64,000 nucleotides of DNA, taken from the IMG/VR virus record IMGVR_UViG_3300027833_003138, positions 1-64,000 of that record; one strand, 5' to 3'. A program made the translations under genes and the position numbers. Shown here piece by piece: positions 40,089 to 63,771 of this stretch. This DNA comes from a virus. The notes under the pieces are model-generated. The model did not search any database, had not been told where the DNA came from, and was given only the letters and a program-made list of their open reading frames with translations. How positions within the stretch are numbered: the stretch's first letter is position 1; each line of letters starts with the position of its first letter.

Positions 40089-40149
40089 GTTTTATAGTAT
40101 AACACCTCGAATGGTGGTTGTCAAGCGTTTTCTGGGTGTATATAGCTTT

Positions 40150-43144: not shown

Positions 43145-43209
43145 TATATCACATAGAGATTATTATGTCAAGATTAAAAAACCCGCACCAACACTGGGTT
43201 TCGGGTGTA

Positions 43210-43581: not shown

Positions 43582-44452
43582 AACAGAGTGTAATAAAAAA
43601 ACATGAAAAGAAAAATTCTTATAATGGGACTTCCTGGATCAGGAAAAACAACATTAGCTGAAAAGCTTGTTGCTAAATTAAATGCCGCATGGTTTAACGC
43701 AGATGCAGTTCGTCAAGATATATATTCTGAACTTGGATTTTCTCCAGAAGATCGATTGTCTCATGCCACACGAATGGGAAAACTTTGTGATTGGGCAAAA
43801 ATAGGAGGTTCATATGTTATCGCAGATTTCGTATGCCCAACTCAAGAAACTAGAGCCGCTTTTGGTGCAGATTTTGTAATATGGGTAGATCGCATAATGG
43901 AGGGTAGGTATGAAGACACAAATAAAATGTTTGAAAGACCTATGAATTATGATTTAAGACTTACCGATGGAACTCCAGAAGAGTGGGTTGATAAAGTTGT
44001 TGAGAAATTAGACGAAACTGAAGCGTGGGATAATCAAGCTCCAACTGCGTTACTTATAGGTAGGTATCAACCATTTCACATCGGGCATAAGAGCCTTGTC
44101 GCTGAAGCCGTAAAAAGAACAGGCCAATGTTGCATTGCATTAAGAGATGTCGGCGGAATTGATGATAGTAACCCCTACGATTTTGAAAAAGTGAAAAAAG
44201 AAATACATTCTGCTTGTGTAGAATTCGGAAACAAAATTAAAGTTGTCGAACTCCCTAATATTATGGATGTATTTTATGGCAGAGGCGTTGGTTATAATAT
44301 CGAACAACTAGAACTAAGTAAAGAATTACAAGAAGTTTCTGCCACCAAAATCAGAGATGGTCAAATTGGTCAAGACGGAAAACCTTTAGGTAAGCGCCCT
44401 GAATAAGCCTCATTCATGATAATCTGTGAAAAGATGGGATTTAAATATTTAA
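43542..44452. repeat. 32-bp exact direct repeats (43542-43573, 44421-44452) flanking the APS kinase gene
   Basis: aatctgtgaaaagatgggatttaaatatttaa on both sides. Confidence 0.92.
43603..44406 (+). CDS. cysC: Adenylylsulfate kinase-like domain fused to HIGH-motif nucleotidyltransferase
   Basis: GLPGSGKTT, NADAVR, FSPEDR, FVCP; C-domain GRYQPFHIGH ... SATKIR. Confidence 0.8.
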   Translation: MKRKILIMGLPGSGKTTLAEKLVAKLNAAWFNADAVRQDIYSELGFSPEDRLSHATRMGKLCDWAKIGGSYVIADFVCPTQETRAAFGADFVIWVDRIMEGRYEDTNKMFERPMNYDLRLTDGTPEEWVDKVVEKLDETEAWDNQAPTALLIGRYQPFHIGHKSLVAEAVKRTGQCCIALRDVGGIDDSNPYDFEKVKKEIHSACVEFGNKIKVVELPNIMDVFYGRGVGYNIEQLELSKELQEVSATKIRDGQIGQDGKPLGKRPE

Positions 44453-44456
44453 GTAA

Positions 44457-45227
44457 TTAAGGCTCAATAAAGTGATCTGAGTTGATTGTCCTCCAGATAT
44501 AGTTCTCTACCTCGCTATAAATTTTAGAGAAAAATGGCTCGTTTTTTTTATCGAGCATATAAGATGGAGTTGCCCTTGTTTTGAAGACTCCTCGCGAACC
44601 TGCGCAGTGATGATATACGATGCCTCCATATACAGAATACAAAAGCGGATCGACAAACAAGCTCTGCTTTGAATCTCTCTGTATTTTTAACCAATTAATG
44701 CTTTTCTCATTTAAGCGTCCGAACAAGAGACCGCCTATATCGCCCCTCCAATCCACATTAGTATTAAAAGATCTATCTCTGCCCCAACAAAATTGATTAT
44801 CCCTCCAGAATTTAACTTTGCAGAAAGCGAAGGAGGGGTGTGGAGCTAGGCATCCCAAATTCTCAATTCGATTAACTGCGCAAAATTCATAATCCGCGAG
44901 ATTGCATTTAATATAGTTGTTGATATCGCCGATAGGAAACGCATCACTATCGAGAAAGATTAGAACATCATCTTCTTTAACGTTCGGGTCGCAGCACACA
45001 GTATTTGTTAATTGAGCAAGACCCATCTCGTGATCGTCGGACTCGTGGCCCGATTTTGATTTTTTATGACCAAGAAAATGATATTTATGTTCATGTTCTG
45101 ACAGGCATAAATCTTTACTAAAAAGAGCCCAAACTTTGTAGTCGCGAGTAAAGCGTTGAATATGCCTTAATTGAATATCAATCCATTTTATTGTTGCGTG
45201 ATGAATGGTAATATAATGTATTTTCAT
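44457..45227 (-). CDS. Glycosyltransferase-like protein (DxD)
   Basis: IFLDSDAFP, PHPSF. Confidence 0.55.
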   Translation of the reverse strand: MKIHYITIHHATIKWIDIQLRHIQRFTRDYKVWALFSKDLCLSEHEHKYHFLGHKKSKSGHESDDHEMGLAQLTNTVCCDPNVKEDDVLIFLDSDAFPIGDINNYIKCNLADYEFCAVNRIENLGCLAPHPSFAFCKVKFWRDNQFCWGRDRSFNTNVDWRGDIGGLLFGRLNEKSINWLKIQRDSKQSLFVDPLLYSVYGGIVYHHCAGSRGVFKTRATPSYMLDKKNEPFFSKIYSEVENYIWRTINSDHFIEP

Positions 45228-45230
45228 GTT

Positions 45231-45836
45231 TTAAAATTGATAATCAAAGTATTCTATGTCTTTATGATATTTTTGAGAAACAATATCAATGGTTTTTTGG
45301 TTGTAATATTCGCTATAGTGCTTGCGGTTTGTTTTGTTTGTGTGGGGTAATTGTTGTCTCCGCTCGCCAACTTCATCACAAACTAAATTAAAGTCTTGCT
45401 GAAGATTTTCGAATCTTATGATGCGATCTATGCAGTTGCGCCCATCTATTTCAACGAATGAATATTGTGTATAAAAGTGATCTGCGCGTCCTGTGGAATC
45501 ATTTAAATGATTAATTTTTTCGTAACCATTGCGAATCAATAAATAATCTTCAAGTGTTGTGTTTTTTAAAAAATTAAAAAACGGTGAGCTTGGTCGAGTC
45601 CACCATTTGTAATCTGAAACTGCTCGATCCCACGGATTTCGAACAATTGCAAATTTATAATAGCTGCGAATATCAATTCCGTAAACTGATTGCATTTGGT
45701 ATATCGAACAATGCTGTTTCCATAAGCTACGTTTTTCGTCCCAACCATAAAAAGAATCGTCAAATAATTTCTCAACGCTTGTTCCTCCTGTTTTTGGAAT
45801 GTGAACGAAAATAATTTTATGTTCGCGATTTATCAT
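45231..45836 (-). CDS. Sulfotransferase family 2 protein
   Basis: 5'-PSB HIPKTGGTS, 3'-PB RNPWDRAVS, RFENL, DIEYFDY; start reassigned. Confidence 0.9.
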   Translation of the reverse strand: MINREHKIIFVHIPKTGGTSVEKLFDDSFYGWDEKRSLWKQHCSIYQMQSVYGIDIRSYYKFAIVRNPWDRAVSDYKWWTRPSSPFFNFLKNTTLEDYLLIRNGYEKINHLNDSTGRADHFYTQYSFVEIDGRNCIDRIIRFENLQQDFNLVCDEVGERRQQLPHTNKTNRKHYSEYYNQKTIDIVSQKYHKDIEYFDYQF

Positions 45837-46491
45837 TGCCAAGGGGGCGCTTATATAAGAAAGATTCACTTCTTTGATTCCATCCATAATGTAAAGCGGA
45901 ATGCGGTATGTCTGCATTGATTTGTATCATATTGTTTATGATGCAATTAATTTCAGAGTCAGAGTCATATAAATTACACAGTGTATCATGAAGAGTTAAA
46001 TACTGCCAATCTTTATCAAATTTGTACCGTTTGATGAATGCATTTTTTAGTTTCACTGACAAGGGATGGCCTGAATAATCAAAACACATAAACCAACTTG
46101 CTGTTTCAGCATAACCTCCCCTTGGGCTCAGTTTACGAGGAAAAAATCGGTATGCAAAAAAACCAGTGTCATTTACTAATTTATAGTAAAAGCTATTCAG
46201 TGGCAACATAGGATAAACACTAGTATCAACCCACACTCCTCCGAATTTTGATAAAAGCAAAACTCTCAACAAGTCTGATTGGGCGGCAAAAGATCGTTTT
46301 GGGGAGTCACGATTGATGGTGAAAAATTCAGGAACAAAATCTTGAATAGATTGATTATCCAAAACATGAATCCTGTAGTCTGGATTAAACTGTCTCCATC
46401 TTGATATGCATTCCATATTCAATTGTGGCACGTCAATATCGTTTTCCCCTTGAAACCAACACATCCATATTGTTTTTCTGGGAATGTTCAT
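45817..46491 (-). CDS. Capsular-polysaccharide-synthesis (GT32-like) glycosyltransferase
   Basis: IWMCWFQG, SDLLRVLLLSKFGGVWVD. Confidence 0.85.
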   Translation of the reverse strand: MNIPRKTIWMCWFQGENDIDVPQLNMECISRWRQFNPDYRIHVLDNQSIQDFVPEFFTINRDSPKRSFAAQSDLLRVLLLSKFGGVWVDTSVYPMLPLNSFYYKLVNDTGFFAYRFFPRKLSPRGGYAETASWFMCFDYSGHPLSVKLKNAFIKRYKFDKDWQYLTLHDTLCNLYDSDSEINCIINNMIQINADIPHSALHYGWNQRSESFLYKRPLGNDKSRT

Positions 46492-47354
46492 TTTAATAGT
46501 GAGGCAACCTGAGTATTAAAGTATTGTATCAGTTGTCGTTTTCGATTTTCGGTATCTATTGCTGCGACGCTCCAATTGACTGCGTCCATTTGGTCAAAGC
46601 GATAGCATGTGGTCATGCCAGCAAGTGTTGACATTCTTTGTTGGTCGCTTGAATGTTGAGGTGAGTTGACCTCGAAATTAGGATAAAATACAATCACAGG
46701 AATGCCCATCGCTATGCATGGGAGGGCGCAATGCAAGAAAGTTGTAATTACTAGTTTTGCGTTGTCTCTATAATTATCTAAAAGTTTTTCAGCCAATATC
46801 ATGTTGTCATCAAAGTTTGAGGTGTGCGAATAGTGATTAATATATTCACATTGAGAAGCAATATCTTTGGGTAATATGTTGAGTATATCTTTATCTCGTG
46901 ATGCAACAAAGATTTTGTTTTGGCTTGTTGTTGCTCTGCGCTTGGGCAGTGTTGTTGTGAGGCAGTTACTTGTATAGCAATCGATTGCTTGTTGATTAAG
47001 TAGATTGAATGTATGCAGATCACGACAGCCAATTGGTTGATGCATCTTGAAATAATCAACGCTGGTTTGGTTGGTTACATTATCAAATAATCCTTCGCGA
47101 TTTCTTGCATGAAATCCGATAAACAAAGGAATAATGTTATCCGATGGAGGCCAAATTTCTCCGCATCTTTTGTGCCAACCATTCATAACTAAGAAAAATT
47201 TATCAGAACTTACTGGTTGAATACCTGAGTCTCTATCCAAATAAATTTCAGGCTCGAGATCTAATTGTTTAAGCAATCTTAATTGAGCAATGATTTGAAT
47301 ATGATCGCCGAGATTGTTGCTATCAACAGAATAAGATGCAATCTTGATAGCCAT
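46488..47354 (-). CDS. Polysaccharide pyruvyltransferase-like protein
   Basis: NLGDHIQ, IGCRD, LHCALPCIAMGIPVI. Confidence 0.75.
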   Translation of the reverse strand: MAIKIASYSVDSNNLGDHIQIIAQLRLLKQLDLEPEIYLDRDSGIQPVSSDKFFLVMNGWHKRCGEIWPPSDNIIPLFIGFHARNREGLFDNVTNQTSVDYFKMHQPIGCRDLHTFNLLNQQAIDCYTSNCLTTTLPKRRATTSQNKIFVASRDKDILNILPKDIASQCEYINHYSHTSNFDDNMILAEKLLDNYRDNAKLVITTFLHCALPCIAMGIPVIVFYPNFEVNSPQHSSDQQRMSTLAGMTTCYRFDQMDAVNWSVAAIDTENRKRQLIQYFNTQVASLLK

Positions 47355-47359
47355 AAAAT

Positions 47360-47926
47360 TTATTTATTATTTTTTTTAAACAAATAGTATGGATAGTTTT
47401 CAATTTGTTTTTGTTGTGAGGGATTATACTTTGTGACAAAACCTGTTTCTTGGTGTTTTGTGTTAACCGCTTGATATTTACTTGAAGTTTTAGAATCGGT
47501 AAATAAATATGTGGAATTGTAGATACACAAATAGCCATTCTTTGCAACAAGTTGATCGATGATATCAAGTGTTTCCTCAAATATATTAAATTTATAAGAC
47601 AGATCATCATCAGAGCTCCATCGGCATAATACCGACATGGCAAAAACCAAATCAAATTTACAATTTAAACTTTCAAGACTATCTGTATACTCGATGTTTG
47701 AGTATTGATTGTTTTTAAAATTGTCACGAATGACATCTTTATTGATGTCGAATCCAACTTGCTTGATATCGGGGAAATATTTTTCTTGCAAGCTTTCGCA
47801 TTCAAGCCTATAAGAACAACCGAAAGATAGTATATTTTTGGGATTAGGGATGATTGACTGAATTTCAGAAAAAATATCAGGATATCTGTTTGGTAAAGTA
47901 CGAGTAGAGATTTGATTGGTTTTCAT
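47360..47926 (-). CDS. SAM-dependent methyltransferase-like protein
   Basis: ILSFGCS, GFDI, FDLVFAMSVLC, GYL. Confidence 0.65.
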   Translation of the reverse strand: MKTNQISTRTLPNRYPDIFSEIQSIIPNPKNILSFGCSYRLECESLQEKYFPDIKQVGFDINKDVIRDNFKNNQYSNIEYTDSLESLNCKFDLVFAMSVLCRWSSDDDLSYKFNIFEETLDIIDQLVAKNGYLCIYNSTYLFTDSKTSSKYQAVNTKHQETGFVTKYNPSQQKQIENYPYYLFKKNNK

Positions 47927-47941
47927 GTTTTATTAAAATGT

Positions 47942-48499
47942 TTACAAATAAATCACGAATTGCCGCTCTTGCACTTCAACTTTGAGATCGTGTAGAGCAA
48001 CAAATTCATCAACTGCAGGCTGTGGGCCAGGCGTTAATGGGTGAGACCATCCATAATCATCTCCGCATAAAAATCCGCCTTTCTTGACTTGGGGATACCA
48101 ATGTTGCAAATCCTCCAAAACAGAAGCGTAGCTATGATCCGCATCAATATATACCCAGTCAAAATACTCTTTCCCAAAAAACATATCTTTAGAGTTGTTT
48201 TTGTGAATAAAAGCGTTAGATTGATTTTTAAATTTATCTTTTACATGCTTGTATGCATCAATTATTTTTTGACCTTTTGCCCATTTAACCCATTCATGAT
48301 CCTGATGTATCCATGGATCAATTAAATGCAATTCCTTTGGGTTGCATTCGAGTATTTGCGAGGAAAAATCTCCTCTCCATACGCCAATTTCTGCGCATAT
48401 ATCGTTAGTTTTAATTTTTTTGATTGGTAGTAGTCGCGGTCTCATTATAATAATATTATTGTTAGGGTTATCGTTTATTACACCAATTTTTATATTCAA
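47942..48499 (-). CDS. Class I SAM methyltransferase (Methyltransf_24-like)
   Basis: AEIGVWRG, IDPW, YIDADHSY, GGFLCGDDY; true start likely MRPRLL. Confidence 0.85.
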   Translation of the reverse strand: MNIKIGVINDNPNNNIIIMRPRLLPIKKIKTNDICAEIGVWRGDFSSQILECNPKELHLIDPWIHQDHEWVKWAKGQKIIDAYKHVKDKFKNQSNAFIHKNNSKDMFFGKEYFDWVYIDADHSYASVLEDLQHWYPQVKKGGFLCGDDYGWSHPLTPGPQPAVDEFVALHDLKVEVQERQFVIYL

Positions 48500-49247
48500 T
48501 TAGTTCATTGCTTGCGATCATTCTATAATCAAAAAGCTCAAAGTCTTGTTTGCATTTTCTATTAATAACTTCTAGGTCACCAACTTCGTAATGATGTAAA
48601 TATTTATAAACCAAGCCGTCTCCAAAGAAAGAATCGCAACTTTGGTCTAGTGGTTTCGTGTTGATATTTTTGGATAGAGTTGGAATCTCATTATAAGGTA
48701 AGCCAATCATCTCGCAAACTTTTTTAAAATCTTCCTCAAATCTTTCGTTTTTCCCTATAAAATTCATTTTTAATGAATTATCTTGATGCGTCCAGCGTTT
48801 GAAAAATCCGCCAGACCTTATCTGATGAAGTGGGTTAAGGAGTTTTAGGTAGTTTCGAAATAAAAAATTACCATTTCCGTCCGTACATTGTTTTAACTTC
48901 TCAAGTTTTCGCTTGTCAATCCTCCAAGCTGCATCATGCTTGCCGTTTTCTTCTTGGTGTTTAATGTATGTTGGCGAGGCATCAAATTGACTGCGAGAAT
49001 AAAAATAATCGTATGGATTGCGTATGAAACAAAATTTAAAATAATCTTTGCATTCCTCATATATTGGTAGCTGCTGTAAATCATCTATCCAGATATGTCG
49101 AGAGATTGCTTTATTTAGCGTGTTATTAAACATAGGTTTTTCAAGTTCTAGGTAATTATTGAACTGCCCAAGTCTTGCGTGCAAAGTTGAAGTTCCTGTC
49201 TTAGGCACTTCAAAAAAAATAAAACGGTAATCGTGCGAAATAATCAT
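48468..49247 (-). CDS. Sulfotransferase family 2 protein
   Basis: EVPKTGTST, RNPYD, DFELFDY. Confidence 0.85.
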   Translation of the reverse strand: MIISHDYRFIFFEVPKTGTSTLHARLGQFNNYLELEKPMFNNTLNKAISRHIWIDDLQQLPIYEECKDYFKFCFIRNPYDYFYSRSQFDASPTYIKHQEENGKHDAAWRIDKRKLEKLKQCTDGNGNFLFRNYLKLLNPLHQIRSGGFFKRWTHQDNSLKMNFIGKNERFEEDFKKVCEMIGLPYNEIPTLSKNINTKPLDQSCDSFFGDGLVYKYLHHYEVGDLEVINRKCKQDFELFDYRMIASNELIEYKNWCNKR

Positions 49248-49837
49248 TGTTGTTGGAATTTATAGTTAAAGTATTCAATGTCCTTCTTGTATGCTGATTC
49301 GATAATTTTCATGTCGTACTCGTTATAATACTCCCCGTAATGTTCTCGATGTTGGTGAGCTTCTTTTTTAAATGGGCCATTATAGGTCGACAATGAAGGA
49401 GGGCAAATATTAAGGTTTTCGCACAACTGATTAAAGTCTGAATTTAAATTTTCAAACCTAAGAACATAATCTAACTCTATTGATTTATTAATAGCCAAGA
49501 AGTCATATTGACTGCCTAGACCTCCCCACATGTTAAATTTTTTTTCAACAAAAGCGAAACTCAGCCAATCGGAAAAGTTTTTTTGCTTGATGGTTTTATT
49601 AAACTGAGTGAAATATATATACATAGATACTACTCTATCCCAAGGATTTCGAACTACAGAAAATTTATAATATTTATTCCAGTATTTAGAATAATTTTGC
49701 TTACATTGGCTGGCGTTCCAGTGTTTTTCTTTCGTTTCGTTTTTGAGTACAGAATCGTCTGCAAGGCTCACGGAAATAGATGTGCCTGCCGTTTTGGGAG
49801 TGTGAATAAAGATGAATTTATGTTTGTGATTTATCAT
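49244..49837 (-). CDS. Sulfotransferase family 2 protein
   Basis: HTPKTAGTS, RNPWDRVVS, RFENL, DIEYFNY. Confidence 0.9.
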   Translation of the reverse strand: MINHKHKFIFIHTPKTAGTSISVSLADDSVLKNETKEKHWNASQCKQNYSKYWNKYYKFSVVRNPWDRVVSMYIYFTQFNKTIKQKNFSDWLSFAFVEKKFNMWGGLGSQYDFLAINKSIELDYVLRFENLNSDFNQLCENLNICPPSLSTYNGPFKKEAHQHREHYGEYYNEYDMKIIESAYKKDIEYFNYKFQQQ

Positions 49838-49849
49838 TTATAAGGCAGA

Positions 49850-50491
49850 TTAACAATGTTTATGCCAAGAGTTCATTGTGAATGGAGGGTTAAGGTAATT
49901 ATAATGATTTTTAACCGCGTTATTCACAAATACCAAATCGCATTGAGCTAAGACATTGTGTTTGTAACAAAGATCAACAATATGGCATAATGAAAAATTT
50001 GATTCATGTAGAATATTACTAATCTGGTTAAACGCTGGCATTTTCGCCTCAATAATAACGAATGCACATTTGGCTAAACTATTTTTCGCCCCATTTAAAA
50101 TATCAACTTCTAGTCCGTCAACATCAATTTTAAGTAAAGCTGAATCTTGGATATTCTCCTCTGCAAACACAGTATCTAGAGATTTTACGCGAACCGAAAT
50201 TTCAGATTTCTCAGAATTTAAGTCGCTTCCCCCAGTTTTTCGATGAAGATACAACTTGGAATCAAATTCAGCACATCCAATATCTAGTAATTTATATTGT
50301 AGTTTGCTATAGTTTTTATGAATCGATTCAAAATATTGGGGGTCAGGCTCTATTAATATATGCTTAGCTTCGCTGAACACTCTCAATTCTTTTGTTTGAT
50401 ATTGACATCCAGCATCTATTATAGTCGAAAACGGAAAGCTGTATTGACATAAAAAATCACAAAAAAATTGTTTTGTAGGTTTAGGTTTCAT
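49850..50491 (-). CDS. FkbM-family methyltransferase
   Basis: IIDAG, LIEP, LLKIDVDGLE, IIE. Confidence 0.8.
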   Translation of the reverse strand: MKPKPTKQFFCDFLCQYSFPFSTIIDAGCQYQTKELRVFSEAKHILIEPDPQYFESIHKNYSKLQYKLLDIGCAEFDSKLYLHRKTGGSDLNSEKSEISVRVKSLDTVFAEENIQDSALLKIDVDGLEVDILNGAKNSLAKCAFVIIEAKMPAFNQISNILHESNFSLCHIVDLCYKHNVLAQCDLVFVNNAVKNHYNYLNPPFTMNSWHKHC

Positions 50492-50502
50492 TGCGTTTGG
50501 TT

Positions 50503-51387
50503 TTATAGGTTATTTAAAAAATTTATAAAATATTCAACGCTAAGTTCTTTTTTGGTTGATCGTATGGCTAGATAATCTGAAACTTCCTGTATGAAAGCTC
50601 TATCTGTTAATCGTTTGTCGATGTTGTCTGGCAGATCATCTAAATACATAGGATAGTCTTCCCCTAGATACTCTACAATGGGCGGAATTTTATTAACTAA
50701 AACGGGCGTGTGCGTCATTATATGTTCAAGAATAGAGGTGCTGGCAGAGCAATCATCGTAAAAAGCATAACCTATTGTGCAGGTTAGAAGCTCTATATAA
50801 TCATCTGGCTCAAGAAAACCATTTCGAAAAATAATAGAATCATTATCTGAAAGGCTCTTTTTGTACTTTTTTTCCCTTGCTGTCCTATCACAAGTAATTA
50901 ACTTGGTTAAGTTAGAATTAAAATTAATAAAGTGATTAATATTCCTTCCGAAAAACCCACTATGCCTCAAGGTTGGAGCTGTGAAATAGAGATCAATTTC
51001 AAAACGATGACCTGTGTCGGGCTTTGGGTGCAAAAGTGTTTTAATGGGAATTGACGTTTTCGTCTGACAGTGTTGCCTTGTGTGTTCGCTGGTCGTTAAC
51101 AAAAAAAGACAATTATCTTTGGTTTTCCTATAAATAGCAGAGGAGAAAAAACGGTTTAAGTTTTGCTCTCTAGACTCGCTAGCGATGCCATGTAAAATTC
51201 CAACCCATTTATTTCTTTTCAATAAATCAAGTTGATATTCATTGTGGTATCCATCTGCCCATGCATCTAGAATCGGTTCGCCTTCGACTAATTTAGCTTG
51301 CCGCTTAAACTTTTCGATAATAAATCCCCACCCATAAAAATGGTCTTTTATAATACTCGCGGGGCATCTAATGTGAGAGAAATTCAT
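50503..51387 (-). CDS. Putative GT-B-like glycosyltransferase
   Basis: SASTSILEHI..TPVLVN..P.IVEYLG..YP motif; island context. Confidence 0.45.
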   Translation of the reverse strand: MNFSHIRCPASIIKDHFYGWGFIIEKFKRQAKLVEGEPILDAWADGYHNEYQLDLLKRNKWVGILHGIASESREQNLNRFFSSAIYRKTKDNCLFLLTTSEHTRQHCQTKTSIPIKTLLHPKPDTGHRFEIDLYFTAPTLRHSGFFGRNINHFINFNSNLTKLITCDRTAREKKYKKSLSDNDSIIFRNGFLEPDDYIELLTCTIGYAFYDDCSASTSILEHIMTHTPVLVNKIPPIVEYLGEDYPMYLDDLPDNIDKRLTDRAFIQEVSDYLAIRSTKKELSVEYFINFLNNL

Positions 51388-51390
51388 AAT

Positions 51391-52041: not shown

Positions 52042-52049
52042 GGTTTTTA

Positions 52050-52688: not shown

Positions 52689-52720
52689 GTCCAGTATATA
52701 CACCCGCTGATTAATTATAA

Positions 52721-54141: not shown

Positions 54142-54143
54142 TT

Positions 54144-54749: not shown

Positions 54750-55390
54750 ATCCAACTGCCTCCCCAATGGTGTACAGCGTGCGCTTCTGGACAAGTTTTA
54801 GAAAAATCTTCTGATTTGCGATGAACTTCGTACCACAAGTAAGGATAAACAGTTTTTTTCGGAGAGTCTCTTCCGTCCGGCCTCCCCTTTTTTGAGCCCA
54901 GTATTTCAGTGATATATACAGGACCATATTTACAATCCGAAATTTTGTTTCCGTGAGATTTTTCTCGAGACGGCAGACTGTCTATGAGGCGCTTGAGGTC
55001 TAAATTTTTCTTGGTGGCCCCAAAAAATGCTCCGCATATTTTTTGCGGTTGCTGCCAATATAATACAATTTTCTCATCTTTCAATAAAGCGTCTATAGGC
55101 TTTAAGCATTCAAAGTCAGTATCGACATATAATCCTCCATACTGATATAGAATTTCAAATCTTAAAATATCTGACTTTTCCGAATAATTTTTGCAGTTTT
55201 TGAGTATTTTAGGATAGGTTATACTTAAATCTTGTTCGATTTTTAAGTCATCCCACATTATGTGTTCCCATTCGGGGTTTAATTTTTTCCAACTATCTTG
55301 CCACTCTTTTTCTTGGTTGGATAGCTCACTGCCACCTATATGAATTTGGTGTATGATTTTTGGAATGCTATCTTTTTGATCTAGCTTCAT
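54746..55390 (-). CDS. GT32 (OCH1-like) glycosyltransferase
   Basis: IPKIIHQI, SDILRFEILYQYGGLYVDTD, HHWGGSW. Confidence 0.9.
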   Translation of the reverse strand: MKLDQKDSIPKIIHQIHIGGSELSNQEKEWQDSWKKLNPEWEHIMWDDLKIEQDLSITYPKILKNCKNYSEKSDILRFEILYQYGGLYVDTDFECLKPIDALLKDEKIVLYWQQPQKICGAFFGATKKNLDLKRLIDSLPSREKSHGNKISDCKYGPVYITEILGSKKGRPDGRDSPKKTVYPYLWYEVHRKSEDFSKTCPEAHAVHHWGGSWI

Positions 55391-56036
55391 GTATTTGACG
55401 CATGGTATTTGAATTTACATAATGAGTTGTAATTTTGTCATGATTCATGATAGCGTTCATGCATACCGATTGATCTGATCTCGCGCTATCTGGGCTTGGT
55501 GTTGATAATAAATCCGTAACAGTTAAGTCGATTTTTTGATCGCGTAAGGCAAGCCCTATGGAGTAATCCTCCGCAGATTTGTTTTTGAATTCATTTTTGT
55601 AAAAATGTTTTAATGATTGCAGGCATTTCTCAACAGCTTTTCGCGTTAGAATGTATCCCGCACCCCCCTGAGCATATGGAAATGGGTTAACTATTTTGCC
55701 ACCTATATACCAATCAGCGCTTGCGTCGTAGTCTTTTAGAAATTGCATAAGTTTATCAAAATTTATATAAGTGTCATCGTCACACTTGAATAAAAAGTCC
55801 CACTCGTGTTTCAATGACTCCACAAGCATTTTGTAAGTTTTTTCAGGCAAACGAAATCGCGCTTCTCCTTCGTCAGGCGAACAATTCCACGTTTTATCCA
55901 TTTTTTGAGATTGCTGTTGATCTCCGTAAAAAAAATACTCATGTGGAGCTTTTATATTATTTACCCATGTATCTAAGCAAGCATTAGCTTGTTCTTGTGT
56001 GCCACTGTGAGTTAAAATTGTTGTTAATATTTTCAT
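55368..56036 (-). CDS. GT31 (fringe/galactosyltransferase-like) glycosyltransferase
   Basis: FKCDDDTY, YAQGGAGY, AEDYSIG. Confidence 0.85.
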   Translation of the reverse strand: MKILTTILTHSGTQEQANACLDTWVNNIKAPHEYFFYGDQQQSQKMDKTWNCSPDEGEARFRLPEKTYKMLVESLKHEWDFLFKCDDDTYINFDKLMQFLKDYDASADWYIGGKIVNPFPYAQGGAGYILTRKAVEKCLQSLKHFYKNEFKNKSAEDYSIGLALRDQKIDLTVTDLLSTPSPDSARSDQSVCMNAIMNHDKITTHYVNSNTMRQIHEARSKR

Positions 56037-56767
56037 TTTCTGTTTAAAATTTCTTTTACCACTTCGATCCTTACTTGATCGAGCGATGCGGATTCATATT
56101 TTTGTGGGTATTTTTTCATTATTCGATCAATATTGTGGTGAGAAACATGATATGCTCTGATGGGGTCGCGAATATCTGGAAAGTAGGGAGAGACATCTTC
56201 CTTTCTTTTTCGAGTCAAAGTTAATGAGTGTTGTTTTGCAAGCGACCGAAAGTTAGTATTGCTTTCTGTGAAATTATAAATAAAAAATTCTTGATCATGG
56301 TAGTGGTTTGCTTGTTTTTTAATTTCATCAAGCCTTAATAGGGTAATGTCGTAAAACAATTCGCATAATTTTTTAAATTCAGATGGCGTTCCAGAGGCCA
56401 TGCAAGGGCACGCGTCATCGAAAAAATGAATTCCTCCTACGAGGGGGTCGTTGATGGTCCATCTACCACTATTAATTACGTCGTAATCAGAGACAAGAAA
56501 TCTTTCGCTTTTATTATCTAAGGCAGAATATGCAAGCCATCTTACAAAACAACTCAATCCATATGGGGTTAAATCGTTCCCAGTAATTTCTTTAAAAATA
56601 AACCTCATTTTGCCAACAAATAAATCGTATTCTGGAGATTTTTTTGCATCGTTAATGTTAAGGGTAATAGGTTCAAAGCCCATTTCCTGCCAACTCAGGG
56701 CCCAAAGTTCGAGTAGCTCTTTTTGTTGTGGAAAATTAATTTCTTCGTAATATGTATAAATCTTCAT
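56033..56767 (-). CDS. Putative glycosyltransferase (DxD)
   Basis: CFVRWLAY, SDYDV; start reassigned to MKIYTYY. Confidence 0.5.
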   Translation of the reverse strand: MKIYTYYEEINFPQQKELLELWALSWQEMGFEPITLNINDAKKSPEYDLFVGKMRFIFKEITGNDLTPYGLSCFVRWLAYSALDNKSERFLVSDYDVINSGRWTINDPLVGGIHFFDDACPCMASGTPSEFKKLCELFYDITLLRLDEIKKQANHYHDQEFFIYNFTESNTNFRSLAKQHSLTLTRKRKEDVSPYFPDIRDPIRAYHVSHHNIDRIMKKYPQKYESASLDQVRIEVVKEILNRK

Positions 56768-58668
56768 TGTGTAAGGCGGTTGTATAGTTTTTTGTCCCAT
56801 CGAGTTCTATCGAGAAATTTTTGTTGCAGCCTGGGGGGGAGCTGATTAAATTGAAGCGTGTTAATTTTACTTGATTTATTTCTATTTAAATAACTTTTCG
56901 GAGCTTTTGAAAAAGATAAATTATATGATTTAGAGAAAATCTCTTCTATAAGGTAATCAACTTGAGTAATATCTTTTATGTAGAATTCTTTCAGTTTTTC
57001 GATAGCGATATTGTAATGACCTTCATCTATTGGATCGCTCCACTTTAGGCATAAAACTTGCCTAATCAACCAACTGTCCTCCAGTTCTTCGCTTTCTATG
57101 TATTGCTCGAATGTGGGTGAAGCGATTTCATCTCGAACGGGTTCGTGGTCGCTATCACTGGATGTTAAATAATAAAATAGGGAGTTCGCCCTAGAAAAAG
57201 GTTCGCGTAAAGTCAAAAAATTAATTGGTTTACGGTTGTACCTCTCACAAATTTCATTAATAAATTCTAGGTTATCTTCCCAACCGATAAGTTCACTTTT
57301 AACAAAAGAACTGCCACTGTTTTGAGGCTCTATGAGTACAGCAAAAATAAAAGTTTTATTATTTTGAATGAAGGAGAGGAATTCTTCTGGAGAAAATTCT
57401 GATGACTTTTTAATTTTAAGGGGAATTGTTTCCTCGTGTAATACTTGATAGTCTTTATAAGTTTTTGCTTGTGGAAATTTTTTATGTAATGCTGTTACTG
57501 CATTTTCTCTAAGTTTTTGAGCATACTCTAGGTTTGTCCAATTTGAATTGTTTGGATATGCGCCACCAATATCAAGTTTGTGATAAGGAGTTGATGCAAT
57601 CTTTGCATGATAATGCAATGCGAAATAATCATGTAATCCCGGACCTCCAAGGAAAACAGTACATTTATTGCCGCTGGGAAAATTAATTGAAGCTTGAATT
57701 TTACCACACTCTTCTTGTGGGCTTTTTGATTTTAAATGTTGATCCAGTAAAAAACTTGTTGCACTTAATACATATGTTCCAGCATTTTTAGCTATATGGT
57801 AATATACTGGAAGCAGTGTTTGTGCTTCATTTAAGCTTCGTTTTTTGTGAAGAATAATTGTTTCTGGGTATTGCTCTATTACACTATCAATTGGAGTGCC
57901 TGCATCTATGGGCAATGAAAAATTAGCGATTATAGAAGAATCTATTAGGTTCTTATGCAAGCTTGACTGGCTGTGGCAATTCTTTCTTCCAAATGAGCCG
58001 CAATAAAGGAAGTGCATTGCTACATCAAAACTAATGAAGTTATTAATATTGTTTTTTATATTGTATTCTATTAATTTTTTAGACTCTTCAATAAATAGCT
58101 TTAGAAATGGAATGTTTCTGTAAATTGCGATGCCGTTTAAGTGCCCTGTCCATGACTCATAAAGGGGAAGTTTTTCTTTACCTTTGTATGTACTTCCAGC
58201 AATTAAAAATACATTGTTGTCGCAATAATTTACTATTTTGTCTAGCCAGTAATTTTTGATTGGTTGAGAGTCTGTTTCTAGCATTAAGATATCTCTATAG
58301 TTTAATTTTAAAATATTCTCAAAAGATCGATAAAATAAATTGTTTGGCCCTGTTGACCCGCCAAGTTTAAACCTCTCGGAGGATTCAACTTTAGAGAAAT
58401 CTTCAGGTGTTCGTACGTAAAAATCTTCAGATTCTGTCAAGTTTAGCACGAAAACGAAAACATTATTTACATTTTCTAATTTTTTGTATTCTAAGAGTGG
58501 TTTGTATTTATTTATATATCCCTTGTTGAGGTAAATATATATATCAAATTTTTTATCAACAGAAACTTGTTTAAGGAAGTATCTCGAAATACAATCGTCT
58601 AATACTCCAGAGTTATACTCTTTTTCCGTGGATAGAAACAATATACATAACTTGTTTGAAAATTTCAT
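56764..58668 (-). CDS. Two-domain protein: GT-like N-terminus plus sulfotransferase C-terminus
   Basis: N: GPNNLF, LETD, HLNGIAIY; C: HIAKNAGT, LREPFSRANS, DKKLY. Confidence 0.65.
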   Translation of the reverse strand: MKFSNKLCILFLSTEKEYNSGVLDDCISRYFLKQVSVDKKFDIYIYLNKGYINKYKPLLEYKKLENVNNVFVFVLNLTESEDFYVRTPEDFSKVESSERFKLGGSTGPNNLFYRSFENILKLNYRDILMLETDSQPIKNYWLDKIVNYCDNNVFLIAGSTYKGKEKLPLYESWTGHLNGIAIYRNIPFLKLFIEESKKLIEYNIKNNINNFISFDVAMHFLYCGSFGRKNCHSQSSLHKNLIDSSIIANFSLPIDAGTPIDSVIEQYPETIILHKKRSLNEAQTLLPVYYHIAKNAGTYVLSATSFLLDQHLKSKSPQEECGKIQASINFPSGNKCTVFLGGPGLHDYFALHYHAKIASTPYHKLDIGGAYPNNSNWTNLEYAQKLRENAVTALHKKFPQAKTYKDYQVLHEETIPLKIKKSSEFSPEEFLSFIQNNKTFIFAVLIEPQNSGSSFVKSELIGWEDNLEFINEICERYNRKPINFLTLREPFSRANSLFYYLTSSDSDHEPVRDEIASPTFEQYIESEELEDSWLIRQVLCLKWSDPIDEGHYNIAIEKLKEFYIKDITQVDYLIEEIFSKSYNLSFSKAPKSYLNRNKSSKINTLQFNQLPPRLQQKFLDRTRWDKKLYNRLTQ

Positions 58669-58669
58669 A

Positions 58670-59383
58670 TTATGATAAATATTTATATAATTTCGATTGT
58701 TCTTCTCTCTTTATTAAAGAAATACACTTATCGACTTTCTTGGGTAATTGTTTTCTGAAATTTTTAAATTGAATTTCTGCTTTTTCTTGATCGTAGTTTG
58801 TGCCTCTTGGGTGAATGATTTTATGGTTTTTATCTCTCAGGACTAATTTTTTATTTAAAAAACTAATTGAAGCTAAAGCTAAATCAATACCCCATCCGTA
58901 ATCTTCATTACGAAGATTAATATTGTAATCTTTAAATTGGTTTATAATATCTTTATGTATGAACCAAACCGTTTCGTCTGTACATCCAACTATGTCTAAG
59001 TTTTGATGCCGTAATAAATTGCGCTTATCTTCTATCCTGAAACTTTCTGTTGTATACCAAGTATAGTCTATATTCGGAGAGTAAATTCCGCAATCATAGT
59101 GCTTGAAATAATAAATTGCATCGCTAACTAATTCTTCCCAGCGATCATAGGATACATCTCCTTGTATGTGGAATAAAATATCTCCAGAAAAGTTTTTAAG
59201 GGCAGTATTGAATTGCCCGGAAAAGTAAAATTCATCGCCAATATTAATCCAGTTTTCTGGGCAATAATGATCGTCGCTATTTATGACTTTAACTTTATCA
59301 AAAATAGAATTTAATTGAAAGAATATTTTTTTAGAGTTTTCTGATTTTCCTTTCCAGTTAAATATGAATGGCTCAATTACCAT
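58670..59383 (-). CDS. Putative glycosyltransferase
   Basis: IQGDV, TDETVW, GWGID, HPRGTNY. Confidence 0.5.
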   Translation of the reverse strand: MVIEPFIFNWKGKSENSKKIFFQLNSIFDKVKVINSDDHYCPENWINIGDEFYFSGQFNTALKNFSGDILFHIQGDVSYDRWEELVSDAIYYFKHYDCGIYSPNIDYTWYTTESFRIEDKRNLLRHQNLDIVGCTDETVWFIHKDIINQFKDYNINLRNEDYGWGIDLALASISFLNKKLVLRDKNHKIIHPRGTNYDQEKAEIQFKNFRKQLPKKVDKCISLIKREEQSKLYKYLS

Positions 59384-59407
59384 TTCTCTTGGCGGCTTCT
59401 TCCTGCT

Positions 59408-59479
59408 TTATCGATCTTCATAACTATACCCAAATGCGTTGATGTCTACTGCGTATTTTTCTTCTATTTTCTCAACTAT
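59408..59479 (-). pseudogene. Relic C-terminus of another sulfotransferase
   Basis: Off-frame IVEKIEEKYAVDINAFGYSYEDR* matches the family tail KY..DI..FGY. Confidence 0.7.
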
Positions 59480-60101
59480 CATAGCTATAACCTAGGTAAT
59501 CTATGTCTTTTTTATAAGATTTAGACACAATATCTATTGATTGATTATTGTATACTGTTCTGTAATCAGTTTTATTAGAGATATTTAAATGAGGTAATTC
59601 GATTTTCTGGATACCTATCCTACTGCATATATTGTCAAAGCTATCTTGCAACGTTTCCATTTTGCCTACAAAGTTAATATTGTCAGTGATCCACCTGGTC
59701 TGAAGCTCTGCAAAATTTGGATTGATGCTTGCAAATTCATTAAAATCTTCAAAGTTCCCAACTAAATCCTTATATGCTTCGTAAGCAGTGATCCATTTTT
59801 GTTTTTTTTCTGGATTTTCATCCCAGAATTTAATCATTTTTTTATAATATTTAAATATGCTTAAATGTCTATCCCACGGATTCCTTGAAAAGGAAAAAGA
59901 AAAATAATCATCCAAATTTTGACTACAATTATTCTTTATATCTTCTAATGTGATATGTTTAAGTATTGGGTTTTCCCTGCCTTCAGCTTTATCTGAAAGA
60001 TTAACCTTTTCATGAAGCGGTTGAAGTTTTGATTCTATTGAAGTCGTGCCCGTTTTCGGCGTGGCAATAAAAATAAATTTATGTTTGTGGGATATAATCA
60101 T
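59472..60101 (-). CDS. Sulfotransferase family 2 protein
   Basis: ATPKTGTTS, RNPWDRHLS, GKMETL, DIDYLGY. Confidence 0.9.
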   Translation of the reverse strand: MIISHKHKFIFIATPKTGTTSIESKLQPLHEKVNLSDKAEGRENPILKHITLEDIKNNCSQNLDDYFSFSFSRNPWDRHLSIFKYYKKMIKFWDENPEKKQKWITAYEAYKDLVGNFEDFNEFASINPNFAELQTRWITDNINFVGKMETLQDSFDNICSRIGIQKIELPHLNISNKTDYRTVYNNQSIDIVSKSYKKDIDYLGYSYDS

Positions 60102-60268
60102 ATTAAATTTCTCCCTCTAATAGCAAAATAGAATTTAATTGAAAGAATATTTTTTTAGAGTTTTCTGATTTTCCTTTCCAGTTAAATATGAATGGCTCAA
60201 TCATCATTTCTCTTGGCGGCTTCTTCCTGCTTTTGGGGGCAATGAAATATAATATATATTATCAATTT

Positions 60269-61030
60269 TCATAATTTATAATGATTGTAATGAAAGCCTT
60301 TGCTGGTTGTTACGCTAAATAGGCATTCGTCAAATCCATCGTGATGGTTCCAGTTTTTAAATGGCCACAAACCTTCTTTTTCGTTTTCGCGAACTAAATC
60401 TTTTATTGCTTGTAGTCTCGTAACGTTTTTGCCCCACTTTGTTTCTAGGGGTTGGTTTGAATCTGGCATACTTAAAACTTTCTCTCTACATCTTCGGGGT
60501 TGAGCTTTTTGGGGAATTTTTAAACTGTCAAATTCGATGTCGCATGCTAAATCTTGCAAAGATTTACTTTTGGGCAAAACAAAATACTCGTCTACATCTA
60601 TAAATGCAAAGAAATCGCTTTGCGATTTAGTCAAAAAATCTCTCAAGGCGGAGTATTGTGAGTCTGGATACTTGTCTTTATGATCTTTTGCGTATTCCCA
60701 AGGAATTATATTTACATTGTTATATTTATCTTGCACCCTGCTGATTGCCTTTATAATCTGAGACTCAGAAAAATCTTCGAAATGGTCTATTTTCGGTTTT
60801 AAGTCCCAAATTTTGGAGATTTCTCCTTGGCATTTTTCGTTTTTAAAAGTTTTTTGCGCCCACCACGAAGTTTGATTACTTGCAGATTTTTCATTGCTTA
60901 TCAAATTAAAACCGTTGTTATATATGTAGATTTTATTTATGCCTATTGATAAATTGTGTTCTATCCATTCTTCAAGATGCCAAAACTCTAGTCTTGGGGC
61001 GATTAAGGTTATGATATCAATTGTATTCAT
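60269..61030 (-). CDS. GT2_4/GT92-like glycosyltransferase
   Basis: LEEWIEHNLSIG..KIYIYNN, FIDVDEY. Confidence 0.75.
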   Translation of the reverse strand: MNTIDIITLIAPRLEFWHLEEWIEHNLSIGINKIYIYNNGFNLISNEKSASNQTSWWAQKTFKNEKCQGEISKIWDLKPKIDHFEDFSESQIIKAISRVQDKYNNVNIIPWEYAKDHKDKYPDSQYSALRDFLTKSQSDFFAFIDVDEYFVLPKSKSLQDLACDIEFDSLKIPQKAQPRRCREKVLSMPDSNQPLETKWGKNVTRLQAIKDLVRENEKEGLWPFKNWNHHDGFDECLFSVTTSKGFHYNHYKL

Positions 61031-62715
61031 AATTGCCCTTCTAGTAGCAAAAACGAAATAATAGAAATTATTTTTAATTTTAAATCCAATTCAGATTGGG
61101 TTTTTGGTTCAGTAAATAAGCAGTTCATGTTGTCTTTTAAAATTTCTTCAACACCTTTTGCGTCTTTCATCCACAAATCTCCTGTCAATGCGTTAGATAC
61201 GGCTTGCCAAGCTACTCGCTTTACGAACCATGATTGATTCAACCTGCTAGGGTCAACAATATGACTTACCGTGCAATCTGGAGTATAAAGTGCAGAGTAT
61301 TTTTTTCTAATTTGCGTAACTGCCTGATCTTCTTCTCCACTAAGAAGCGTACTCGTTCCACCTTTGCGACCTAAGTGAGTACCAAATCCTCCAATTTCTT
61401 TAAGAGCCTGCAGTCTAAAACAAATATTCGCCCCTACTAGCCAAATAGGTTTATCATATTCATGCAAGAATACATCTCTATCTGAAAAATCGGCCATAGA
61501 AAGTTGCCCTAACTGATCATCACTCAACCATTCTGGTCTTTCTGCGATTTGCCAATCTGGAATAATTTTCCCCCCAACTACACCTATTGATGGGTTTTTG
61601 AATTTATTAACCATGTTTCGAATTAAATTCGAATCTACGATTGTATCGTCATCTACGAAATAGATTAAATCAGATTTTGATTCTTCTATACATGCATTTC
61701 TTGCGCCAGAGAGCCCGTCTGTTAATGTATGTATATATCTACAGTTGCTGATTGTTTTCGCAAGGCTGTACGCTTTATCGTATTCTTTTTTGCATTTAGC
61801 TATGTCTTCCACAGGCGTATTGTCTAATACTATAATCTCATATTCATCCATCAAGGCTGACTGATTTGACGCAGACTCTAGACACTTACGCAATAATTTA
61901 TGATTGTTGTATGTACAAATACATAAGCTTGTGGTTAAATTTTTATTCCAATACTCAAATGAAGGAGAATTGATTTCTTGGATAAGAGACTTGTATTCCA
62001 TATCATAATATGGCTTGTCTTTTTGAGTGTGTATGTTAGATTCTTTTTCTGCAGAATAACACAAATCTATACAAGGAAAAAAAGCGAAATCGAGACAAGT
62101 CTCCGCAGCATGCATGACGAACCTGTCTGCCGGCGCAGTGATGCTATTTTTCTTACCCCAATCGTATCTAGGGTTTTCTTCTTTGATCCTTAATAAGTGC
62201 TCTGATGGCTCTTTTATGAAATCAAAAGGAGAACAATGCCTAAATTTAAAACTATCCTGCACACAAGAGACTAATTTAACTGCTCCTTGATTTTTTAAAA
62301 TATACGCTTCAAGCCCGTCCCATCCTCTTGCCCCTAAGTGGATTAAATCTAATGATTCATCTATATCTGGATTCGTCATCAAATAATTTACTAAATCACT
62401 AATGACTATATCATCTTCGACGATAAGCGCACAATCTAAATCTTCATCGATAATCTTTTTCCAAGCGGAGTAGTGGCTTAAAAAGCATCCCGCTGCTCCC
62501 GCGCTCTGAGAAAAATATAATTTATAAAAAATACCAACAGGGTCTATCTTTAGTCCAAAATCATCGACAACGCTTAAATCTTTGCGAGTGTCAATTGCAT
62601 CTATTCTTTCTAGGCAATTTTTCATTTCATCTGGCAGAAGGGAAAATAAATTTTGAGCCTTTAACCAAGGCTGTGGATTATCTTCTAGATTTATAAAAAA
62701 TACTTTGAATTTCAT
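61027..62715 (-). CDS. GT25 plus GT2 fusion glycosyltransferase
   Basis: N: FINL, GCFLSHY..W, VEDD; C: ICTYNN, GLSGARN, FVDDD, GANICFR, GEED. Confidence 0.85.
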   Translation of the reverse strand: MKFKVFFINLEDNPQPWLKAQNLFSLLPDEMKNCLERIDAIDTRKDLSVVDDFGLKIDPVGIFYKLYFSQSAGAAGCFLSHYSAWKKIIDEDLDCALIVEDDIVISDLVNYLMTNPDIDESLDLIHLGARGWDGLEAYILKNQGAVKLVSCVQDSFKFRHCSPFDFIKEPSEHLLRIKEENPRYDWGKKNSITAPADRFVMHAAETCLDFAFFPCIDLCYSAEKESNIHTQKDKPYYDMEYKSLIQEINSPSFEYWNKNLTTSLCICTYNNHKLLRKCLESASNQSALMDEYEIIVLDNTPVEDIAKCKKEYDKAYSLAKTISNCRYIHTLTDGLSGARNACIEESKSDLIYFVDDDTIVDSNLIRNMVNKFKNPSIGVVGGKIIPDWQIAERPEWLSDDQLGQLSMADFSDRDVFLHEYDKPIWLVGANICFRLQALKEIGGFGTHLGRKGGTSTLLSGEEDQAVTQIRKKYSALYTPDCTVSHIVDPSRLNQSWFVKRVAWQAVSNALTGDLWMKDAKGVEEILKDNMNCLFTEPKTQSELDLKLKIISIISFLLLEGQL

Positions 62716-63727: not shown

Positions 63728-63771
63728 GCTTGTATTATACTATATAATGGATTGTATGTCAAGGGAAAAAA

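Follow-up and report, generated by a model that had tools for sequence, protein, structure and literature searches.

A phage island of sulfotransferases and glycosyltransferases with a replaceable cassette slot, possibly for a variable sulfated glycan on the virion

Glycosylation by phages is known on a small scale from mycobacteriophage capsids, from the 'LPS' (lipopolysaccharide) clusters of cyanophages and from DNA glucosylation; O-glycosylation of mycobacteriophage virions has reportedly been described. Giant viruses such as chlorovirus PBCV-1 and mimivirus encode a cytoplasmic, carrier-independent synthesis of capsid or fibril glycans, with methylated sugars and eukaryote-like glycosyltransferase (GT) families of the GT-A type, and to our knowledge neither sulfation nor a cassette slot has been described for it. 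Clusters for cell-wall synthesis or modification, of LPS type, are reported for the cyanomyoviruses P-SSM2, S-SCSM1 and S-SCSM2R in a paper that claims 13 GTs as a possible record for a marine phage and mentions sulfotransferases not once (PMC12801897). For phage-encoded glycan sulfation no description was found in the literature, where phage sulfotransferases receive only passing mentions as auxiliary metabolic genes. Here we describe an island at positions 43603-62715 of a 64,000-nt window (the whole stretch of DNA analysed), which is the first 64 kb of the 140,314-bp linear IMG/VR viral contig IMGVR_UViG_3300027833_003138 (CheckV completeness 79%). It differs from these systems in a sulfation capacity that amounts to eight domains genome-wide, pyruvyl and methyl capping enzymes, a framed cassette slot and a conserved fusion resembling adenosine 5'-phosphosulfate (APS) kinase. 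We favour, with a confidence that stops a little short of even, the reading that the island builds a variable sulfated glycan on virion proteins.

The island holds 24 open reading frames (ORFs), all on the minus strand except the first, most of which abut or overlap a neighbour. GC content is ~34% throughout, and the island does not stand out in composition. Its features, in window coordinates, are as follows (SAM, S-adenosylmethionine; NMNAT, nicotinamide mononucleotide adenylyltransferase).

43542-43581 and 44421-44460, no strand: 40-nt direct repeats, 95% identical, around the kinase gene (repeat family D9).
43603-44406, plus: fusion of an APS-kinase-like domain (residues 1-141) and an NMNAT (NadM)-type nucleotidyltransferase (residues ~146-251); conserved left frame of the slot.
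44457-45227, minus: 256-aa protein with a hydrophobic strand and a DSD motif, GT-A lead only; last gene of the variable slot (alignment A4).
45231-45836, minus: sulfotransferase 1 (Sulfotransfer_2), E 8.7e-15, with PKTGGTS and RNPWDRxxS.
45817-46491, minus: GT32-like / Caps_synth glycosyltransferase (Caps_synth E 2.5e-30, Gly_transf_sug E 5.6e-10).
46488-47354, minus: polysaccharide pyruvyl transferase, PS_pyruv_trans (PF04230) E 3.5e-13, 50.5 bits against a cut-off of 25.3, over nearly the full profile length.
47360-47926, minus: SAM methyltransferase, Methyltransf_23 (Pfam).
47942-48499, minus: SAM methyltransferase, Methyltransf_24/TylF-like (Pfam).
48468-49247, minus: sulfotransferase 2, E 6.9e-13, with the motifs.
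49244-49837, minus: sulfotransferase 3, E 2.3e-15, with the motifs.
49850-50491, minus: FkbM-family methyltransferase, Methyltransf_21 E 4.2e-16.
50503-51387, minus: GT-B lead only, ESM Atlas features at 0.97 to viral Glycos_transf_1 clusters.
51391-52041, minus: protein with neither match nor lead in the family searches.
52050-52703, minus: sulfotransferase 4, E 1.3e-20.
52721-53500, minus: 259-aa protein with no match in the family searches.
53446-54141, minus: DUF1796 protein, E 7e-5, right at the cut-off.
54144-54749, minus: sulfotransferase 5, E 1.7e-20.
54746-55390, minus: GT32 glycosyltransferase, E 2.7e-17.
55368-56036, minus: Fringe/GT31 glycosyltransferase, E 1e-17.
56033-56800, minus: 255-aa protein, a lead from its DxD motif only.
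56764-58668, minus: 634-aa fusion of a GT-A domain (residues 1-278) and a Sulfotransfer_2-like domain (residues 277-633), from fold and motifs.
58670-59383, minus: 237-aa protein; a copy of its first 83 nt and of the 26 nt before them stands upstream of the next gene (repeat analysis).
59301-59409 and 60125-60233, no strand: 109-nt direct repeats, 98% identical, around sulfotransferase 6 (repeat family D4).
59472-60101, minus: sulfotransferase 6, E 2e-13.
60269-61030, minus: GT2_4 / GT92-like glycosyltransferase, E 3.4e-8 and 5.7e-6.
61027-62715, minus: GT25 + GT2 two-domain glycosyltransferase (Pfam), conserved right frame; GTGTAATT 16 nt before its start.
62712-62945, minus: 77-aa lipobox protein that opens the unit and weakly matches an Rz-like spanin (E 0.0016); GTGTACTA 14 nt before its start.
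63375-63398, minus: strong intrinsic terminator (10-bp stem, 6 GC pairs) between an upstream early unit (promoter at 63763) and the island.

Six genes encode stand-alone sulfotransferases of the Sulfotransfer_2 family (PF03567), as had been proposed in an earlier note made from the letters of this DNA, and all of them score above the Pfam cut-off of 22 bits (49.7-75 bits; E 7e-13 to 1e-20). A seventh stand-alone copy lies at contig positions 119413-119955, in a second glycan cluster. The loop for the 5'-phosphosulfate of 3'-phosphoadenosine 5'-phosphosulfate (PAPS), PKTGGTS and variants, and the 3'-phosphate motif RNPWDRxxS are present in 7/7 of these stand-alone copies, with the conserved histidine kept in six of the seven. 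These sulfotransferases are old paralogues with mutual identities of 20-37%. PF03567 was found in none of 14 control genomes, and a tblastn search with one island sulfotransferase retrieved a homologue in only five of 50,697 phage records; the concentration of sulfotransferases here is far above chance. Metagenomic relatives are abundant for the copy at 54144-54749, with more than 1600 clusters at E <= 1e-10 and PF03567 in all of the best 120 listed.

The eighth domain resides in the 634-aa protein. Neither Pfam, run on split halves of this protein, nor a hidden Markov model built from the seven sulfotransferases (E 0.095) detects the fused domain, so that a fold search and motif invariance were needed, beside a language-model lead toward a sulfotransferase. 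Throughout the family of 23 homologues, K293, G296 and T297 of the 5'-phosphosulfate-binding site (5'-PSB) and R487 and S495 of the 3'-phosphate-binding site (3'-PB) are invariant, and hhalign relates the fused domain to the island sulfotransferases at E 8e-5 over the 3'-PB region. In the AlphaFold (AF2) model, with a mean predicted local distance difference test score (pLDDT) of 76, residues 277-633 match the heparan sulfate sulfotransferases HS2ST (3f5f, Z 11.6) and HS6ST (5t03, Z 11.1), and residues 1-278 show a GT-A fold, with LARGE1, LgtC and glycogenin at Z 12-13.5. The model thus presents the protein as a GT-A glycosyltransferase fused to a sulfotransferase domain, and the fused domain anticipated by the earlier note is upheld by fold, invariant binding-site residues and hhalign alike. 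The genome total amounts to eight sulfotransferase domains and a dozen or more GT domains.

Firm GT genes number six, with seven domains (two GT32, GT31/Fringe, GT2_4/GT92-like, GT25+GT2 and the GT-A fusion). The count of about ten GT-like genes given earlier was too generous, since six have family or fold support and three more ORFs are leads only, namely 50503-51387 (GT-B) and, by DxD-type motifs, 44457-45227 and 56033-56800. In the family of 44457-45227 (alignment A4) D92, S93 and D94 are invariant; profile searches of the PDB with alignments A4 and A2 gave no match, and hhalign of A4 against A2 was negative. Pfam (E <= 10), NCBIfam and PHROGs returned nothing for the ORFs at 44457, 50503, 51391, 52721, 56033 and 58670, nor for 53446 beyond DUF1796. 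The three methyltransferases and the pyruvyltransferase-like gene of the earlier note are all recovered by Pfam (Methyltransf_23, Methyltransf_24/TylF, FkbM; PS_pyruv_trans above its cut-off), and at gene level the repertoire fits the sulfated, methylated, possibly pyruvylated glycan that it had envisaged. The second glycan cluster, which adjoins fibre genes, comprises GT1, WavE, a HAD+NTP-transferase fusion, GT2, a methyltransferase, GT47 and the seventh sulfotransferase. Elsewhere on the contig, a 501-aa protein of the structural block (135454-136959) contains a GT32-like segment, 32% identical over 119 aa to the GT of 54746-55390, and a PHROG glycosyltransferase lies at 125629-126684; GTs are therefore also embedded among virion genes.

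Comparison with relatives shows that the interior of the island, 44407-61036, is a replaceable slot. In the closest relative, IMGVR_UViG_3300046464_000709, nucleotide homology of the left flank runs from 41866 to 44406 at 86% and ends exactly at the stop codon of the kinase gene (44406), and it begins again at 61037, close to the 3' end of GT25+GT2, at 85%. Between these borders there are 16.6 kb here and 4.25 kb in the relative, where a GT32, two unrelated ORFs and three sulfotransferases occupy the slot; these three share only 33-42% identity with any copy here. The GT25+GT2 protein itself shows 82% amino acid identity in the closest relative and is represented by a 33%-identical allele in three others, which, with kinases 94-99% identical, carry a third version of the slot: two sulfotransferases, three ORFs without an assigned family and the GT25+GT2 allele. 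Best matches of the interior genes are scattered over different relatives at 25-84% identity, further relatives have arrays of 4-6 sulfotransferases near the kinase, and all five close relatives that are at least 90% complete contain between 1 and 10 sulfotransferases. The variability of the glycan that had been supposed from this one sequence is strongly supported by such comparison, the slot being replaced in the closest relative.

Traces of the exchange are visible in repeats. Because the 109-nt repeats around sulfotransferase 6 duplicate the 5' end of the downstream gene, they are the scar of a cassette insertion. The kinase gene also seems to move as a cassette, given its flanking 40-nt repeats and its different neighbourhood in seven relatives, in which it lies directly beside the dUTPase gene with no island between; the complete ones among these carry sulfotransferases elsewhere. 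Cassettes with sulfotransferase, GT and methyltransferase genes would thus be exchanged by recombination among related phages, and these relatives would therefore make different glycans. Since the cassettes are exchanged between relatives that are ~85% identical in nucleotides elsewhere, the pattern points to strong diversifying selection on surface chemistry.

All of the machinery is soluble. No credible transmembrane helix was found in the island proteins, no ORF of the contig has four or more hydrophobic segments (the maximum is 3), and the 65 related viral loci compared, which add up to 1.25 Mb, contain no polytopic ORF with six or more. No flippase, polymerase, permease or priming phosphoglycosyl transferase is encoded on the contig, so the hydrophobic-segment scan bears out the first impression that genes of this kind and export genes are missing. 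Polytopic ORFs lie near 35 of 55 bacterial sulfotransferase loci, a frequency close to that of any 16-kb bacterial window, and this comparison was not used as evidence.

Solubility bears directly on the view that the target is the host envelope. In that alternative, which we take seriously but hold distinctly less likely than not, the host's undecaprenyl-linked intermediates of O-antigen, capsule or core would be modified by the enzymes at the inner membrane, and a flippase or exporter of the host would display the altered, sulfated surface. Progeny or rival phages might then fail to adsorb to infected cells and debris, as has been proposed for the LPS gene clusters of cyanophages. Such a target would suit the enzyme families, as GT25, GT2, GT32, WavE, pyruvyl transferase and FkbM are typical enzymes of LPS and capsular polysaccharide synthesis, and cellular homologues of the island sulfotransferases are widespread at 30-41% identity. 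It would also suit the small lipoprotein gene that heads the unit and the cassette variability, which resembles that of O-antigen loci, and modification of the host surface is the published interpretation of the GT-rich clusters of cyanophages (PMC12801897). Against it stand the lack of any membrane component in the phage or in the 65 related loci, the position of the second cluster among fibre genes, and the regulatory signals of the unit, which has the element of virion genes and not early promoters; late expression leaves little time for re-surfacing the cell.

Early promoters are dense up to the edge of the island and stop there. Between 9.8 and 43.2 kb, minus-strand genes are preceded at intervals of 0.4-6.6 kb (mostly <3 kb) by CTTGACA-N17-TATAAT promoters close to the consensus, and two more stand at 63763 and 69101; the island, which the terminator at 63398-63375 parts from the upstream early unit, contains none with a usable -10. 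A generic sigma-70 scan told nothing about the island, with 86 sites where 83 were expected. Another element, GTGTAATA, stands 14-17 nt ahead of four genes, which encode the kinase, the sheath and two further virion proteins, and its core GTGTA is found 10-45 nt upstream of starts in 13 cases against 2.1 expected by position. Virion genes among the 13 are those for the sheath, for two fibre-like proteins and for the proteins of 2322 and 1551 aa; the kinase gene and the two genes that open the island unit (62945, 62715) are included as well, so that the element is shared by the island head, the kinase gene, and the sheath, fibre and tape-measure genes. Sites of the form GTGTA(A/C/T)TA lie at window positions 43588, 62731 and 62959 and at contig positions 72877, 76025, 84880, 97361, 127036, 129877, 132492 and 138768, 14-33 nt before starts, with the end of the element mostly 6-9 nt from the ATG; were GTGTA to act as a late promoter of -10 type, transcripts would have almost no leader. 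The element is retained before the kinase gene in many relatives whose flanks are divergent. Probably, then, the island is co-expressed late with the genes of the particle. The T4-type TATAAATA, also considered as a promoter signal, showed no positional pattern. GTGTA is present as well at window 227-1066, the gene preceding a subtilase, and GTGTAATA at window 41858 (minus strand) stands 16 nt before a pair of tRNA genes, tRNA-Thr (41767-41842) and tRNA-Ser (41669-41762), which suggests that the pair belongs to the same (late) regulon.

DNA as the acceptor, with the enzymes glycosylating and perhaps sulfating modified phage bases to evade restriction, appears very improbable. The idea draws on the Ralstonia jumbo phage phiRSL1, whose operon of sulfotransferase and kinase adjoins a long thymidylate-synthase homologue and contains GTs annotated after T4 DNA glucosyltransferases, and on a sub-threshold aGPT-Pplase3 match in one island sulfotransferase. 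Neither a ThyA-family hydroxymethylase (PF00303) nor ThyX (PF02511) is matched on the contig, though, and the five relatives at least 90% complete lack a ThyA-family enzyme. The signals are of late rather than early or middle type, the families are of glycan type (GT25/31/32/92, pyruvyl transferase), and ~20 transferase or modifying domains lie far above any known DNA modification pathway. The missing hydroxymethylase, together with a glycan-type and very large enzyme set, makes a DNA target unlikely.

Considering that (i) a late-type element is common to the island and virion genes, (ii) no membrane component is present, (iii) the second cluster lies among fibre genes, and (iv) sheath and fibre-like proteins are the most Ser/Thr-rich (the sheath has 23% Ser+Thr and one window of 45%), a virion target is favoured. 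In the mechanism that we propose, soluble and probably late-expressed enzymes would build and decorate an oligosaccharide in the cytoplasm of the infected cell, where GT-A and probably GT-B enzymes would use nucleotide sugars of the host to extend the chain. Caps would be added to it by seven PAPS-dependent sulfotransferase domains, three SAM methyltransferases and the pyruvyl transferase, and the phage's own Ser/Thr-rich virion proteins (sheath, fibres) would be the most likely acceptor. The unit would be framed by the APS-kinase-like fusion on one side and by the GT25+GT2 gene and the small lipoprotein gene on the other. PAPS would be made from host APS by the kinase domain of the phage.

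This last step depends on the 267-aa fusion. Its N-terminal domain scores 45.1 bits with Pfam APS_kinase (PF01583) against a cut-off of 21.1, only over model positions 5-91 of 152. In Foldseek the top ~40 matches to this domain are all APS kinases, and comparison with 4rfv (VIA) gives Z 18.5 and a root-mean-square deviation of 1.7 A over 126 aa at 30% identity; APS kinases hold the top ranks in this second fold search too, while gluconate kinase reaches Z 15.8 and nicotinamide riboside kinase Z 10.3. The P-loop is kept, and invariant D34, R37, F46, R51 and R57 make up D-x-x-R and LGFSxEDR-type motifs; the DGD motif of APS kinases reads NAD. The C-terminal domain carries GRYQPFHxGH and ISATKIR across 23 homologues, with H159, G161, H162, S246-A247-T248 and R251 invariant, and the fusion has an NCBIfam NMNAT/Nudix match at E 7.8e-8. 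Thus, of the APS-kinase fusion announced earlier, the kinase fold stands, while the partner is an NMNAT-type nucleotidyltransferase and not an ATP sulfurylase.

Whether such an enzyme serves sulfation may be judged from its distribution. The kinase family is present in 18 of the 50,697 phage records overall and in three of the four distinct sulfotransferase-bearing phages, cultured or deposited (phiRSL1, DLP_6 and the uncultured LR756500), and each of the five close relatives at least 90% complete has sulfotransferases as well; in phiRSL1 the kinase-domain homologue and the sulfotransferase share one operon. On the 79%-complete contig there is no match to PF01507, CysH/CysD or Nampt, and as PF01747 (ATP sulfurylase) is likewise not matched, APS would have to come from the host. 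Since phages that lack sulfotransferases carry the fusion too, a part in PAPS supply is credible without being established, and we regard the chance that it supplies PAPS as roughly even. That it is a miniature PAPS synthase, with a small nucleotidyltransferase in the place of ATP sulfurylase, is attractive but unsupported, and appears improbable. The fusion could instead be a general nucleotide-cofactor enzyme, for NAD salvage or another adenylylated metabolite, for instance, with PAPS provided by CysC of the host; to this we give a chance that is real but distinctly below even. The canonical NadM-type motifs and the NCBIfam match would be explained in this way, as would the 153 viral contigs that carry the fusion, which include genomes without Sulfotransfer_2, its strand, opposite to that of the island, its enclosure in 40-nt repeats of its own, and its place directly beside the dUTPase gene in the seven relatives without an island between. 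Hard to reconcile with a cofactor role are the clear margin by which the N domain is nearest to APS kinases, the APS-kinase motifs that it keeps, the occurrence of the kinase domain alone in the sulfotransferase operon of phiRSL1, and the missing Nampt. Full-length homologues of the fusion, 36-41% identical, are found in ~56-kb Sano-like siphoviruses of Xylella, Xanthomonas and Stenotrophomonas; in Stenotrophomonas phage Bhz60 (OR797045.1, 15056-16882) the gene has a NADAR-domain gene on one side and a DNA methyltransferase on the other, a context that hints at a second, possibly NAD/ADP-ribose-related, role.

Several points weigh against a sulfated glycan on the virion. Glycan, sulfate and acceptor are all read from genes, and in bacteria GT2, GT25, GT32 and sulfotransferases of this kind act on lipid-linked glycans; a carrier and an exporter of the host could serve the phage. 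The neighbours of the island are dUTPase, small ORFs and the UV-damage endonuclease UvdE, with structural genes not adjacent, and GTGTA is a putative regulatory element that, within a unit of 18 kb, precedes the first two genes only. Seven island ORFs have no functional assignment. As to sulfate activation, the fusion scores 39 bits where the NCBIfam apsK model (TIGR00455) has its cut-off at 138.7, its kinase lid is ~20 residues shorter than in APS kinases, it occurs without any Sulfotransfer_2 in a 349-kb genome (97% complete), in a complete 117-kb genome and in the Sano-like Bhz60, and neither ATP sulfurylase (PF01747) nor PAP phosphatase (CysQ) is matched on the 79%-complete contig. The gene-level facts are solid and unusual; acceptor and chemistry are predictions. 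A sheath and fibre coat that is sulfated, methylated and pyruvylated and is switched in the manner of serotypes through cassettes in a fixed slot, with the possibility of a miniature PAPS synthase added, is graded as tentative, and on the unlikely side.

The contig comes from an uncultured marine myovirus. A tail sheath (phrog_15433, E 2e-47) is encoded alongside giant virion proteins and fibre-like ones, and the sheath gene confirms the phage origin claimed at the outset. Similarity to cultured phages is remote only: the sheath is 26-34% identical to sheaths of jumbo phages, megablast of the island against the 50,697 phage records gave zero matches, and T4-like similarity was not found for this lineage. 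Inference of the host from cellular sulfotransferase homologues failed, these being at most 41% identical and taxonomically scattered. Shine-Dalgarno-like 4-mers precede 20% of the contig's genes against a background of 12%, an ambiguous clue, and leaders are A-rich, with ~50% A at -6 to -1 over all gene starts of the contig. The early promoters, being canonical TTGACA/TATAAT (sigma-70-type), argue against a Bacteroidota host; low Shine-Dalgarno use together with near-perfect TTGACA-N17-TATAAT early promoters is an unusual combination for host guessing. Directly left of the island (window 39069-41198) lie a weak HNH-like ORF and UvdE (E 4e-31), for which conservation in the closest relative is 97%. 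Lipobox-type signal peptides (...VGC, ...TGC) occur on two small flanking ORFs, 42338-42721 and 62712-62945, and the subtilase at window 1121-2293 (Peptidase_S8, E 7e-46) has a Pro-rich repeat that resembles procyclin (PARP) repeats.

If the coat were indeed on the particle, the view of marine phage adsorption, of stickiness to sulfated algal exopolymers, of grazing and of decay would change, and glyco-engineering would gain many small, soluble sulfotransferases for carbohydrates. Were the host surface the target, the island would represent a way, new for phages, of converting that surface. The kinase fusion, found in over 150 viral contigs, is of interest under either target as a so far uncharacterised enzyme of two domains.

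Among the systems known, the cyanomyovirus clusters are alike in that their content varies between relatives and their target is unproven, and differ in lineage; the present phage has eight sulfotransferase domains, a pyruvyl transferase and an APS-kinase-like gene, with a sharply bounded replaceable slot. Mycobacteriophages reportedly decorate capsid or tail proteins in the cytoplasm with soluble GTs of their own, with glycans that vary between phages, and are said to do so with one to few GT genes beside structural genes and with no sulfation; the present set exceeds 20 enzymes, and its action on the virion is a prediction. The island does not lie beside structural genes, but its head and the kinase carry GTGTA, as the sheath, fibre and tape-measure genes do, and the second cluster abuts fibre genes. 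Loci for surface polysaccharides that depend on Wzx/Wzy or on ABC transporters contain polytopic membrane proteins, which neither the contig nor the 65 related loci have.

Closer in enzymology is the operon ORF232-238 of phiRSL1 (NC_010811.2), for which no published function was found in the literature searched. It contains a Sulfotransfer_2 gene 21-28% identical to the island copies, a kinase-domain homologue (42% over 139 aa), three GTs and two nucleotidyltransferases, and its sugar nucleotidyltransferase matches the second glycan cluster of our contig; it differs in its single sulfotransferase, in a kinase without the NMNAT-like domain and in the adjacent thymidylate-synthase homologue. Human PAPSS1 (1x6v) shares with the fusion the order of an N-terminal APS-kinase fold followed by an HxGH nucleotidyltransferase fold, and 246 of the 267 fusion residues align with it domain by domain, although the C domain of the fusion is a ~105-aa NMNAT-type domain with no PF01747 match and its kinase lid is the shorter one. 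The glycosylation of giant viruses, finally, is that of viruses with eukaryotic hosts, and the PBCV-1 glycosyltransferase 2p6w is among the matches of the fold search.

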